Part shown: positions 21,040 through 59,185 of the stretch, one piece after another
Layout of the letters: every line of letters starts with the position of its first letter
Numbering within the stretch: position 1 is the stretch's first letter
Virus record (IMG/VR): IMGVR_UViG_3300045988_005753
Strand: one strand, 5' to 3'
Length of the DNA stretch: 64,000 nucleotides
DNA from: a virus
Lineage: Duplodnaviria; Heunggongvirae; Uroviricota; Caudoviricetes
Program-made: the position numbers and the translations under genes
The notes under the pieces: generated by a model
The model's input: the letters and a program-made list of their open reading frames with translations, nothing else
What the model was told of the DNA's origin: nothing
Databases searched by the model: none

Positions 21040-21423
21040 TTAGATACCTGTGCAGCTTCTGTTTTCTAAGAAATACTCAACACCATACATAGCTTTTTGC
21101 ATCAAATCTTCTTTAAACTGGATACGATGGTTGAGCATAGCCTGTACATCAATATCATCATGGTGCTTCTCTTTAATATTTGCAGATTGCAGGAAATACT
21201 CTGCAAGAACGCGATATTGATAGTCAGTCACCTTGTCAGTCATCTCTGTCAAAGATTCTTCAGAGATTGGTTTAAGTAGCTCACCATTAGCTAGAGCAAC
21301 ACCTTTTACAATCTGGCAAGTATCTTCTGGAACACCTGACAAGTCCACATTTGGGAGTTCTGTTGCATTGACTGGTAAATTCATTGCCATAACCATTGCA
21401 GCAGCTAATAAAATCTTTTTCAT
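21040..21423 (-). CDS. secreted/periplasmic protein with N-terminal signal peptide
   Basis: MKKILLAAAMVMAMNLPVNA has the n-, h- and AxA-like cleavage features of a Sec signal peptide; GAGG 5 nt upstream of the ATG. Confidence 0.5.
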   Translation of the reverse strand: MKKILLAAAMVMAMNLPVNATELPNVDLSGVPEDTCQIVKGVALANGELLKPISEESLTEMTDKVTDYQYRVLAEYFLQSANIKEKHHDDIDVQAMLNHRIQFKEDLMQKAMYGVEYFLENRSCTGI

Positions 21424-29095: not shown

Positions 29096-29290
29096 TTTTA
29101 CTCCCTCTAAAATCATTAACCCCATACATTACTGCAAAAAATTATAAAAAGCAAGTTGACAATACACTTGACAAGGTGTTAATCTTTGCGAAGTGGGTTT
29201 TTACTTAAAAGGTTACTTAACAGTTTAACTATACAGATACTTTAGAACTCTTAAAAGATTATTTAATAGCTTTTAAAAAGCTTTAAAGTA

Positions 29291-29309
29291 TAACGTATAG
29301 AATACGTTA
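29291..29309. promoter_or_regulatory. perfect inverted repeat in the divergent control region (candidate operator)
   Basis: TAACGTAT-AGA-ATACGTTA, 8-bp arms with a 3-nt spacer, about 45 nt upstream of the 29353 start. Confidence 0.35.
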
Positions 29310-29352
29310 AGATAAAAGATTAAAACTTAATAGTTACTTAAAAGAGGCTTAC

Positions 29353-56142: not shown

Positions 56143-56164
56143 AGGCTCCTTCGGGAGCCTTTTT
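56143..56164 (+). terminator. rho-independent terminator
   Basis: AGGCTCC, loop TTCG, GGAGCCT, then TTTTT. Confidence 0.6.
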
Positions 56165-56183
56165 CATTTCAGGAGATTGTTAA

Positions 56184-56531
56184 ATGACATTTAAAGAGTT
56201 CTGTCAAGCTACTTTCATAATTGTTTTCTTAGTTGGGGCAGGTGTCTGGGGAGGATACTCTTACAGAGACTACCAAGTTGCTGAAGCTGAGTTAAGTAAT
56301 GAGAAACTAATAAGTGTTGCTAAAGATGCTTATCAGGAAGGTTTAGCCACACTCAGCACCAATTACAAAAATGATTTGAAAGATGTGCTTGCTAAGAATA
56401 AGCATACAAAAGAGGTACTAACATATGAAAAAACTAAGCCAGAGTTTTATAATGTTTGTGTTACTGATAATTATGTCAGGGTGTTCAACGAACAAAGTGA
56501 ACAGTACATTCAAAAACTCCCAAGTAAGTGA
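56184..56531 (+). CDS. i-spanin-like protein (Rz-like)
   Basis: 115 aa with one N-terminal transmembrane helix (FIIVFLVGAGVWGG) and a charged helical remainder; the 3' end overlaps a lipoprotein ORF in another frame. Confidence 0.4.
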   Translation: MTFKEFCQATFIIVFLVGAGVWGGYSYRDYQVAEAELSNEKLISVAKDAYQEGLATLSTNYKNDLKDVLAKNKHTKEVLTYEKTKPEFYNVCVTDNYVRVFNEQSEQYIQKLPSK

Positions 56532-57684: not shown

Positions 57685-58470
57685 ATGGGTATTGTAAAAA
57701 TCATCAATGGCGATATCTTTGCCGCATTTGATAAAGGTAAGTTTGACATTATTGGTCACGGTTGCAACTGTATGAATTTAATGGGTGCAGGTATCGCTGA
57801 CAAGATTTCTAAACTTTACCCAAAAGCATATGAGACAGATACAGAAATCTATCTATATGCAGGTGGCATAGGTCACAAACCCTGTGAAAATTTACTGGGT
57901 AATTTCTCTGTAGCACGTTTAAAACAAGGTCGTATAGCTAACCTTTACACTCAGCTTAAGACTGGTAAAGATGCCCGATACAGTGCTTTAGAGTCATCTT
58001 TGAAACAGCTTAACAGATACTGTGAAGTTAACCAGTTGAAGAAGGTTGGTCTACCTATGATTGGTGCAGGTATCGGTGGACTTGACCCTCAAGCTGTCAC
58101 AGTTATCATCAATCAGGTGATGAAGAGTGTAGATGTTTATCTGTATGTCTATGAAGGAGAGATGTACCACAAGTTACGCTCAGGTTGGAAGAACTACTGT
58201 GAACCAGAATACTTTGCAGGTGTAGCAGTGTTCACGGATAACGCAGTTACCCTCTTCAGACGAAGAAAAGCTAAGATACATCAAAGTAACCCTCCGGTTG
58301 AAAGGATGTCTCTAAGTAACGCTCTAGTTACCCACCTGTCGAAGAGCAATCACAGAATAGCTGTGACATTTGGTAGTGATGCAGATGCTTACATCTATGC
58401 AAGAACTGATGAGGATATCGAGGCAATTTTCTCATCACCGGAAGTTACCTTCTTAGACGCAAAGAACTAA
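57685..58470 (+). CDS. macro-domain protein (ADP-ribose binding/processing)
   Basis: DIIGHGCNCMNLMGAGIA and GLPMIGAGIGGLD resemble the two glycine-rich signature segments of macro domains (xNAANxxLxxGGGV and AFPxISTGxYG). Confidence 0.45.
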   Translation: MGIVKIINGDIFAAFDKGKFDIIGHGCNCMNLMGAGIADKISKLYPKAYETDTEIYLYAGGIGHKPCENLLGNFSVARLKQGRIANLYTQLKTGKDARYSALESSLKQLNRYCEVNQLKKVGLPMIGAGIGGLDPQAVTVIINQVMKSVDVYLYVYEGEMYHKLRSGWKNYCEPEYFAGVAVFTDNAVTLFRRRKAKIHQSNPPVERMSLSNALVTHLSKSNHRIAVTFGSDADAYIYARTDEDIEAIFSSPEVTFLDAKN

Positions 58471-58544
58471 GAAACTCTGTAGAATATTCACAATAGACTA
58501 AGCCTTTCTTATCTGGTAAATTTTTCAGGTAAGGGGGGCTTTTT

Positions 58545-58722
58545 CATTTCAGGATTGTGCAGGTAGAGTTCTGTATAGAAATCTGTAGAGAGTATTTTGA
58601 ACTCCAAAGAGAAAATTCATTTTCAAACTGTGCAGGTAATCTCCAAAGAGCTTTTTCATTTTCAAAACGTGCAGACCCCGCTCAGGTCGGGCAAGAAAAA
58701 TCATTTTAGAATTGTGCAGGTA
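58545..58722. repeat. cluster of four imperfect direct repeats, core CATTTTCAAACTGTGCAGGTA
   Basis: Copies start near 58545, 58618, 58657 and 58702; the middle two form a tandem ~39-bp unit that begins CTCCAAAGAG. Confidence 0.55.
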
Positions 58723-58746
58723 GGTTTTTATAGAGAGCCAGACCAA

Positions 58747-58777
58747 CCCCTCTCCCCCTCTTACTCCCCCTCTCCCC
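58747..58777. repeat. polypyrimidine tract; the complementary strand has four G-runs (G-quadruplex-capable)
   Basis: CCCCTCTCCCCCTCTTACTCCCCCTCTCCCC; complement GGGG-AGAG-GGGGG-AGTAAGAG-GGGGG-AGAG-GGGG. Confidence 0.5.
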
Positions 58778-58899
58778 AAAAGTCAAGAGAAAAATTTGTA
58801 GCGGATTGAAAAATAATTCTTGATTTGTGTTCTGTTTTGTGGTAGTCGTGTGCGCACGTTTCATTACAGTTTTTGCAAAAAATATTTTTAAAATTCCTA

Positions 58900-58928
58900 T
58901 TGACTCTTTGAGTATGGTTATCTAATAT
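58900..58928 (+). promoter_or_regulatory. sigma70-like promoter TTGACT-N17-TAATAT
   Basis: TTGACT 58900-58905, 17-nt spacer, TAATAT 58923-58928; same hexamers as the promoter at 18509; about 50 nt upstream of the first cassette ORF. Confidence 0.5.
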
Positions 58929-58978
58929 TTGCATCAGACGGGCAATCAAGCCCACTTCCTAAACTGGAGAATCTAAAA

Positions 58979-59185
58979 ATGCTGTACAGTCGCGAATTGA
59001 TGGTTACAACTAACATTAACACAAAGGCAAAACGTTTTTACATGCAAATCTGTGGCGTGTGGTCCAGAATATCAGAAGCTGACTATTGCAACTATGTAGA
59101 AACAGCTATAAACTCTAATTGCTACCTTACAAGAAACACTAAGAACTTTATAAGACAGTCAGCAATTTACTACTACGATAAATAA
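58979..59185 (+). CDS. hypothetical small early protein
   Basis: 68 aa; preceded by the conserved CCTAAACTGGAGAATCTAAAA ribosome-binding region. Confidence 0.45.
   Translation: MLYSRELMVTTNINTKAKRFYMQICGVWSRISEADYCNYVETAINSNCYLTRNTKNFIRQSAIYYYDK

Follow-up and report, generated by a model that had tools for sequence, protein, structure and literature searches.

Felix O1 and its relatives are classical Salmonella and Escherichia coli typing and biocontrol phages, and the genome of one such phage raises the question of what an interval of some five hundred base pairs, devoid of any credible gene, is doing between its genes. The interval (the gap) lies in a 64,000-nucleotide stretch of Caudoviricetes DNA, the IMG/VR record IMGVR_UViG_3300045988_005753 (the window, meaning the whole stretch analysed), which by its sequence is a Felixounavirus (Felix O1-like; Ounavirinae) genome. 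The region is matched by 233 phage records, nearly all Felixounavirus, at identities of up to 94%, and the window corresponds to positions 21,342 to 87,125 of the relative Pr103Blw, whose genome ends were set by PhageTerm. The gap, with a GC content of 38%, contains the terminator that closes a long rightward operon extending from rIIA to a macro-domain gene and, to the right of it, the promoters of an early block of small open reading frames (ORFs). The original prediction, made from the letters of the sequence, had noticed four imperfect direct repeats here, two of them in tandem, and read them as the layout of a replication origin or, alternatively, as a binding-site array for a phage regulator.

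The four repeats (R1 to R4) are borne out and are not a product of chance. Their core can be written as TCATTT-N5-8-GTGCA(GGTA), and the pattern TCATTT-N5-8-GTGCA occurs four times in the 64 kb, always on the plus strand, with starts at 58544, 58617, 58656 and 58701; chance alone would give 0.34 occurrences, and none of 100 shuffled sequences reaches four. The start-to-start distances are 73, 39 and 45 bp, R2 and R3 being contiguous 39-bp units, and the copies are clearly diverged: the 22-nt cores match one another at 13-20 of 22 positions and the repeat units at 19-28 of 40. Just upstream of the core lies a 10-nt segment, box A, which has the form CTCCAAAGAG in both R2 and R3. Since the core pattern is absent elsewhere in the window and also from the remaining 27 kb of the Pr103Blw genome, the cluster is present once per genome, an array of more than three direct copies of an asymmetric site of ~17-22 bp that is unique in its replicon. 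The original prediction had further pointed to a copy of the start of the first repeat near 56160; the 16-mer CTTTTTCATTTCAGGA, identical to the start of R1, does recur exactly at 56159-56174, and there, within 56143-56174, it forms the tail of a terminator followed by the ribosome-binding site of the gene at 56184. As a fifth repeat this copy was rejected, the GTGCA half being missing.

The array extends well beyond this genome. The gap matches 289 phage records; in Mooglevirus and Suspvirus its DNA retains 73-78% identity, against 63-65% for the macro protein, and the repeat segment can be aligned even with the Erwinia phages of Kolesnikvirus. More distant relatives were traced through two-domain macro proteins of 33-45% identity, and in every Ounavirinae lineage examined the array stands at the same syntenic position, with three to seven head-to-tail copies. 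Felixounavirus, Mooglevirus and Suspvirus loci share one copy order, with distances of 73-77, 39-41 and 45 bp; four is the usual number, and in a few loci one copy has been lost or no more than three satisfy the strict pattern. Kolesnikvirus has four copies of the same core in the same synteny, at distances of 37, 37 and 39 bp. Among uncultivated relatives, L040 has four copies (core GCTTTTTCATTCTGAAACTGTGCAGG; distances 91, 35 and 45 bp), L039 six (core TCATATTGAAAAAGTGCATAA/G), L042 six or seven, and L076 and L079 five each; in L039, L040 and L042 the array lies one to four genes away from the macro gene, but here too it comes after a terminator and before a promoter with an UP element. No array was found in the other, non-Ounavirinae-like macro-gene loci from the same scan. 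Within the Felixounavirus group, 26% of the sites in the array are variable among 23 distinct sequences, against 38% in the macro gene; the array appears to be under purifying selection, and is, on these alignments, the most conserved non-coding feature examined in the group. The original prediction would have been undermined had the repeats been missing from relatives; they are present, which clearly favours function, and an iteron-like array that is genuine, selected and unique in the genome fits either of the two readings it had offered.

What has been kept and what has changed across these lineages gives an indication of how the array may work. The universal part of the unit is TCAT(T/A)T-N6-7-GTGCA(G/T), whereas members of one lineage share a box A that bears no relation to those of other lineages: CTCCAAAGAG in Felixounavirus, Mooglevirus and Suspvirus, GGTCTGGCAAG in Kolesnikvirus, GGACTAACGAG in L040, GGCACGAGAC in L039 and GTCACATCGTCAA in L042. 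Such a lineage-specific box is the pattern expected from a site that co-evolves with its binding partner. Moreover, the sequence of distances (73-91, then 35-41, then 45 bp) is retained between Felixounavirus and L040, and this long/short/45 spacing points to an architecture at the level of DNA. The repeats are therefore probably, although by no means certainly, cis-acting, head-to-tail iteron-like sites for a sequence-specific DNA-binding protein, most likely one encoded by the phage itself. Several copies of this candidate protein, seated on the three to seven units, each composed of the universal bipartite core and the lineage-specific 10-nt box A upstream of it, would assemble into a single nucleoprotein complex on each genome, at the junction of the long rightward operon and the early small-ORF block. 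The complex might then mark or control a replication origin that is activated by flanking transcription. This complete statement, a binding array together with the origin role, is a plausible proposal that is held tentatively.

Further short elements accompany the repeats. A second small motif family, (A/T)NTCTGTAGA, occurs in the gap at 58476, 58582 and 58795 (as TTTGTAG at 58795), and a motif of this type also follows the last repeat in the distant locus L040, at 4655; the same locus holds extra repeat families, CCAGAAACGC in four copies and GTTACGAAGCTGGGGT in three, plus a G-rich tract upstream of the array. Known motifs were considered by eye as an identity for the repeats and rejected. 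Sigma-70 or MotA-type promoters were suggested by TAnnnT sequences resembling a -10 element at R1, R2 and R4, which are not kept in other genera, and sigma-54 promoters, the RfaH ops element and the CRP, IHF, Fis, OmpR, PhoB and MarA boxes all fail across lineages.

Of the roles that a complex on this array could play, marking or controlling the phage replication origin is the single most likely, even if it is itself rather doubtful. The traits that recall an origin are the occurrence of one array per genome, its variable copy number and the lineage-specific flanks, read as co-evolving, together with the presence of several motif families in one gap, GC-rich tracts nearby and flanking promoters. 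A considerable list of observations weighs against it. An unwinding element was not found in the gap, where the only AT-rich stretch is a 22-nt UP element ~150 bp from R4; the iterons next to an AT-rich element that the original prediction had described thus dissolve into an array and, at a distance, an UP element in register with its promoter, and the AT-rich stretch is part of an ordinary, strong-looking early promoter, not a site of unwinding. The layout finds no other support in the gap, which has no DnaA boxes (TTWTNCACA), no initiator-like gene beside it, where the macro-domain gene and small ORFs assigned to function-unknown PHROGs are found, and no origin-like change in GC skew, which drops slightly across the gap instead of rising; an unrecognised initiator may yet be encoded elsewhere in the genome. 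The units, 35-91 bp apart, lack the helical phasing of classical iterons, the protein that would bind the array is still only a presumed one, and a conserved leftward TTGACT promoter-like site faces the array, leaving room for a role at the level of RNA. In the PhageMaP work on phage Bas63, the span of ~46-66 kb is called uniformly nonessential; the Bas63 gap, at 64064-64571 (bas63_0096/0097), falls within that span, for which the statement is made as a whole. Finally, there is a rival origin site at 29126-29352, beside the DNA polymerase gene and at the cumulative GC-skew minimum (~29.5 kb).

This rival site is a 227-bp divergent gap of 26% GC that holds TTACTTAAAAG three times, two TTGACA hexamers and AT-rich palindromes, and it might instead house an origin or divergent early promoters. 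As for DnaA, its box consensus occurs 4 times in the window against 11.5 expected (standard deviation 3.4), a depletion that looks like avoidance; by inspection, the half-site GTGCATAA/G of Kolesnikvirus and L039 resembles a DnaA box at 7-9 of 9 positions, and the Felixounavirus form at 6 of 9. Chi sites are absent from the gap, and the window as a whole has 0 against 0.8 expected.

Could the repeats instead be read as something other than protein-binding sites on DNA? Several GenBank records annotate small protein genes on the minus strand of the gap (bas63_0096/0097, Pr103Blw_00144, CPT_Michonne131 and SB18 QHI00560, homologous to 58549-58864), stop-free frames of 52-130 codons are present, and one 52-codon frame is, by inspection, open in both of the alternative sequences, alleles A and B, found in the spacer next to R4. 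However, the frames called differ between the records; variable sites among the 23 Felixounavirus sequences are spread over the three codon positions as 17/17/14 in the array, compared with 71/55/162 in the macro gene; unit spacings of 41 bp in Mooglevirus and 37/37/39 bp in Kolesnikvirus break any common frame; and between genera the conserved islands show no change at any codon position. The 52-codon frame is disrupted by a 10-nt deletion in phage VpaE1, lacks a start codon in Michonne and has no ribosome-binding site, and no Pfam or PHROG family matches the ORFs of the gap. The judgement in the original prediction that the gap has no credible ORF holds in this sense: ORFs of up to 76 aa exist, none of them with family support, a conserved frame or codon periodicity. 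Proteins encoded on the minus strand are thus a most improbable explanation, coding was rejected for the plus strand as well, and the annotated ORFs look like gene-caller artefacts. A non-coding RNA deserves more attention, though it too is unlikely. It would start at the leftward promoter-like site, P_L, and run across R4 to R1 toward the terminator hairpin, ~250-330 nt in all, with the repeats as three to seven RNA modules that serve as a sponge or decoy for a protein such as a defence or RNA-binding factor. The single orientation of all the repeats and the repeated placing of ORFs on the minus strand by gene callers would suit such a transcript, and so would P_L, the -35 TTGACT and 17-bp spacer of which are the same in 26 of 26 loci scored; with a position weight matrix (PWM) of our own, the source of all promoter scores given here, its -10 is good in allele-B phages (TAGCCT, 8.1, equal to the early promoter P1) and in Kolesnikvirus (TTGACG-N18-TATACT, 10.8), and L042 has TAGTCT. 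A leftward promoter aimed at the array, weak in this window, is thus plausible in several lineages. Phage phiTE, moreover, is said to carry pseudo-ToxI repeats, a precedent for repeat RNAs in phages. Yet the -10 is poor in the window and in all allele-A phages (TAAGAG, 5.6), the TTGAC of L040 abuts R4', so that the transcript would start inside the array, and on the minus strand the hairpin, on inspection, loses four pairs and has no clear U-tract. A search of the gap against Rfam gave chance-level matches only (E > 5), and RNAalifold gave weak consensus folds on either strand (~-21 kcal/mol for 300 nt; 0 compensatory pairs on one strand and 4 on the other); a known RNA family or structured RNA was rejected, there being no Rfam family and no meaningful covariation. 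Mimicry of ToxI was likewise rejected: against a ToxI sequence verified on plasmids, 115 of 500 shuffles scored at least as high as the array, a similarity that does not exceed chance. The conserved distances between units favour an architecture in the DNA. The repeats might, finally, have no function of their own, as decayed duplicates of terminator and promoter cassettes that link mosaic modules by recombination. The gap is indeed a mosaic joint, with alleles A and B swapped between R4 and the island that follows, in locus L071 the macro gene has been replaced while the gap remains Felixounavirus-like, and the units faintly resemble the UP/-35 region of P1. But a core that is invariant in lineages without other alignable non-coding DNA, units kept in number, order and spacing, and a conservation above that of the flanking gene make this reading highly improbable.

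If the repeats are sites for a protein, that protein need not serve replication. A phage early or middle protein on the repeats could act as an insulator between the delayed-early operon and the immediate-early block of small ORFs, or could modulate or shut off P_L and the rightward promoters P2 and P1, a possibility to be taken seriously even though it is, on balance, doubtful. The same order is found in every lineage (terminator, array, variable segment, promoter with UP element), R1 overlaps the T-tract of the terminator in Felixounavirus and Mooglevirus, the 5' half of each core is by inspection an A/T-tract resembling an UP subsite, and the region is apparently dispensable in the laboratory. 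Reverse-transcription PCR on Felix O1 detected ORFs 13, 16, 20, 21 and 22 at 5 min and ORFs 2, 5, 9 and 12 at 10 min (Whichard et al.; PMC3185647), timing that would fit a temporal boundary, the ORF numbers being those of that paper and not matched to the genes that flank the gap. On the other side, the repeats lie 180-350 bp upstream of P1 and overlap no promoter, the many similar early promoters elsewhere in the genome are all without the motif, and the overlap of R1 with the terminator is not kept in Kolesnikvirus or L040. A role linked to the genome ends, in which the array would work with the terminal repeat as a pause in DNA entry or as a packaging or concatemer-processing site, is very unlikely. 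What speaks for it is position: measured on Pr103Blw, ~6.5 kb (7% of the genome) remain between the gap and the right end, and the gap delimits a block of small sigma-70-driven early ORFs that run toward that end, an analogy with the untranslated repeat regions of T5, which are more conserved than the neighbouring ORFs (bioRxiv 10.1101/866236). In L076 (8600-9010) and L079 (8600-9000), a TTAACA/TGTTAA cluster follows within ~45 nt of the five-copy array, a 31-nt piece of it being 84-87% identical to nt 7-37 of the Felixounavirus direct terminal repeat (DTR), and TGTTA(A/C)-type repeats stand just after the array in L040 (4690-4760), L039 (6085-6114) and L042 (4100-4135). Against this, the 5.9 kb between array and DTR in Felixounavirus is too far for the recognition of a cut site, no paired DnaA boxes are present, and if L076 really ended at its TTAACA cluster, its array would not be at the inner edge of the early block, which contradicts a stop of injection. 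The specific version in which the array and the TGTTAA-type clusters would act as a DNA-entry checkpoint, at the inner edge of an early 6.5-kb block transferred first, is drawn by analogy and is a remote prospect; we know of no report of two-step DNA transfer for Felix O1-like myoviruses. Were it true, the array would do in a contractile-tailed phage what the injection stop signal does in T5.

The gap itself is not the terminal repeat. This idea arose from the reported 608-bp DTR and from IMG/VR contigs that end within the gap. The repeat was found to be 608 bp in UAB_Phi87 by Bal31 digestion and sequencing (PMC4837284) and 581 bp in Pr103Blw by PhageTerm (PMC8303462). In the latter genome the annotated DTR occupies 1-581 and 87841-88421, with the gap at 81479-81947, so that the DTR lies ~5.9 kb further right, and the core motif is absent from it; the gap was accordingly rejected as a terminal repeat or packaging site. 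The contig ends look as if they arose from breaks in sequencing or assembly: one enters a Nextera adapter and one is chimeric. The DTR has a striking feature of its own, as 1-581 of Pr103Blw is packed with TGTTAA/TTAACA (9 per 300 nt against ~0.5 expected), which suggests that these motifs may form a second protein-binding repeat system at the genome ends. The window stops ~0.7 kb short of the position homologous to the DTR.

The features of the gap and its flanks are collected in the table below.

Features of the gap and of its flanking genes, in window coordinates (promoter scores from our own PWM)
Feature	Position	Strand	Sequence or size	Remarks
Macro-domain gene	57685-58470		261 aa	Pfam Macro; left flank of the gap
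Gap	58471-58978		508 bp	Separates the macro-domain gene from the first small early ORF
Intrinsic terminator of the macro-gene operon	58500-58546	+	17-bp hairpin with G-U pairs (58500-58541), then TTTCATTTCA	
R1 core	58544-58565	+	TCATTTCAGGATTGTGCAGGTA	
R2	58602-58638	+	box A CTCCAAAGAG and core TCATTTTCAAACTGTGCAGGTA	
R3	58641-58677	+	box A CTCCAAAGAG and core TCATTTTCAAAACGTGCAGACC	
R4	58686-58722	+	box A variant GTCGGGCAAG and core TCATTTTAGAATTGTGCAGGTA	Alignable with Kolesnikvirus phages
Replaceable spacer, allele A	58723-58777		55 nt	Holds the C/T tract; 85% of sites variable
Alleles A and B compared	58723-58777			Window against L002, L004, L011-L022 and L038; between R4 and AAAAGTCAA
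Candidate leftward promoter P_L	58758-58786	-	TTGACT-N17-TAAGAG	PWM 5.6 here
Conserved island	58778-58801		AAAAGTCAAGAGAAAAATTTGTAG	Left arm of inverted repeat; minus-strand TTGACT from 58786 to 58781
Inverted-repeat right arm and P2	58808-58848	+	arm GAAAAATAATTCTTGATT; TTGATT-N17-TAGTCG	Weak promoter-like; PWM 1.8-6.5
Conserved box	58850-58869	+	GTGCGCACGTTTCATTACAG	L042 form GTGCGCCCGTTTCCTTTACAG
UP element of the early promoter	58876-58897	+	CAAAAAATATTTTTAAAATTCC	
Early sigma-70-type promoter P1	58900-58928	+	TTGACT-N17-TAATAT	PWM 7.9-10.4 in 26 loci
Ribosome-binding site (GGAG) and ATG	58966-58981	+		Of the ORF 58979-59185
First small early ORF	58979-59185			phrog_5293; right flank of the gap

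Outside the repeats, the gap is ordinary or variable, consisting of a terminator, a 55-nt spacer, an inverted TTGAC pair and an UP element with its promoter, and the best reading is that the array lies within a composite early control region. The terminator has a GC-containing hairpin followed by a T-tract, comes after the stop codon of the macro gene and runs with its T-tract into R1; in the alignment, its 3' arm and its pairing are retained in Mooglevirus and Suspvirus despite changes in the 5' arm.

The spacer is the most changeable part. The tract at 58747-58777 had been described as a pure run of 31 C/T nucleotides with four G-runs on the complement, and the tract and its G-quadruplex (G4) motif both stand (C-runs of 4, 5, 5 and 4), though not its purity, given an A at 58763. 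By motif, it is the sole canonical G4 candidate in the window (minus strand; 0.07 expected); its arms form, by inspection, a near-mirror repeat, and its ordinary hairpin folding amounts to 0 kcal/mol. Allele A, which holds the tract, is also found in Mooglevirus and Suspvirus, and the unrelated allele B (GGTGGGTGCAGGTGGGGATGTCGCC...), of equal length, takes its place in 13 of 26 scored loci of Felixounavirus type, Bas63, Barry and VpaE1 among them; the 10-nt deletion of VpaE1 lies inside allele B. The tract is thus not conserved among relatives that keep the flanks, and since about half of the Felixounaviruses carry allele B, a G4 or H-DNA structure here would be dispensable or interchangeable. 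From the alignment, the exchange of alleles is a sharply bounded mosaic swap within non-coding DNA. Two IMG/VR 3300045988 contigs (L005 and L007) end at the same base in the C tract (...CTCTTACTCC), one of them then entering a Nextera adapter, and a third, L010, is chimeric after R3; the C tract appears to break sequencing or assembly, and its coincidence with two metagenomic contig ends is a practical point.

To the right of the spacer, the island AAAAGTCAAGAGAAAAATTTGTAG is identical over three genera except for G/C/T variation inside GTCAAGAG, and together with ...AATAATTCTTGA(C/T)T it supplies two TTGAC hexamers in inverted orientation. The 8-bp palindrome that had been noted at 58850-58857, GTGCGCAC, does exist, but perfect 8-bp palindromes number 160 in the window and this one is at chance level; the box GTGCGCnCGTTTC that contains it is kept even in L042, so that it is the box and not the palindromy that is conserved. 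The TTGACT-N17-TAATAT of the original prediction was recovered as P1, which has a 17-bp hexamer distance, an UP element and a place before a ribosome-binding site and ORF, as a sigma-70 early promoter should. The UP element stands in exact register at -59 to -38 of P1 (with the -35 hexamer at 58900), an arrangement conserved in every lineage examined, and agrees at 14 of 15 specified positions with the consensus nnAAAWWTWTTTTnnAAAAnnn, reportedly that of Estrem et al. from 1998.

Neither flank offers a recognised partner for the array. The macro protein has two domains (structure model with a predicted local distance difference test score, pLDDT, of 86.5), and the fold of its N-terminal domain is, in the model, nearest to the ADP-ribosylation-reversing macrodomains TARG1 and DarG, a resemblance that hints at a possible counter-defence role against DarT-type toxins. 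The beta-rich C-terminal domain (~residues 170-261) found no match and shows no recognised DNA-binding fold, and was rejected as the binder of the array, as it bears no DNA-binding signature and the array is not adjacent to the macro gene in distant lineages. The small proteins encoded between macro gene and array in those lineages are membrane-like and not conserved, and were also discarded as candidates. In L071 (8001-9230), the macro protein has 42% identity to that of the window, yet the gap downstream hardly differs from the Felixounavirus type except for the loss of R2; here the macro gene was swapped and the non-coding module remained in place. To the right of the gap follows a series of small ORFs in PHROGs of unknown function. 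A host or plasmid source for the gap DNA was rejected, with no match in E. coli genomes and plasmid matches at chance level. The GenBank record GU169904 ('Staphylococcus phage SA1') holds DNA 95% identical to this Felixounavirus gap and seems to be mixed or mislabelled.

The array appears to be previously undescribed. The Felix O1 genome paper lists other direct repeats, not these, and states the temporal control of Felix O1 transcription as unknown (Whichard et al., 2010), and no paper was found on this array or on a Felix O1 replication origin. Because the array is defined to the base and occurs once per genome, it offers three direct experimental handles, as a probe, a deletion target and a clonable fragment, in the search for an origin or an early switch. 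Further, the GenBank ORFs inside the gap look spurious, and the gap should not be taken as a neutral insertion site in phage engineering.

It is instructive to set the array beside systems that are better understood. Like ToxI and pseudo-ToxI, it consists of tandem units of ~36-45 nt in phage non-coding DNA, and the hosts commonly harbour ToxIN plasmids (75 matching plasmid records, of which 49 come from Escherichia and 12 from Salmonella); unlike them, its units are diverged and irregularly spaced, with no toxN-like neighbour and no defined promoter-terminator frame. The phi29 p4/p6 control region shares with it the clustering of regulator sites in one intergenic region with back-to-back promoter-like elements, although the repeats of the array are direct rather than inverted and lie beside the promoters, not over them. 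With the repeat regions in the first-step-transfer DNA of T5 it has in common a long gene-free segment with several repeat families that is better conserved than the small early ORFs beside it and lies, ~7% from an end, on the inner border of a block of early genes near the terminus that host RNA polymerase drives. The T5 region, however, lies within a 10-kb terminal repeat and has 1.2 kb, paired DnaA boxes and large inverted repeats (IRD'/IRC'), whereas the Felixounavirus DTR measures 0.6 kb and is 5.9 kb away from the gap; lying outside the DTR and having no DnaA boxes, the gap does not qualify as an injection stop signal of the T5 kind. The rightward promoter with its UP element (58876-58928; UP 14/15, TTGACT-N17-TAATAT) closely resembles the UP-dependent sigma-70 promoters, such as rrnB P1 and the strong early promoters of T4 and T5. 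Iteron origins (the lambda ori with its four O-protein sites, P1 oriR, RK2 oriV) differ from the array in having ~20-24 bp between classical iterons, where the array has an unphased 35-91 bp, and in their adjacent cognate initiator gene, their unwinding element and their DnaA or IHF sites, none of which was recognised here, the array being neither in nor beside replication genes. Even so, it is with these origins that the array shares its basic design of head-to-tail asymmetric sites of ~20 bp, present once per genome and varying between lineages, with GC-rich and AT-rich segments and promoters nearby.

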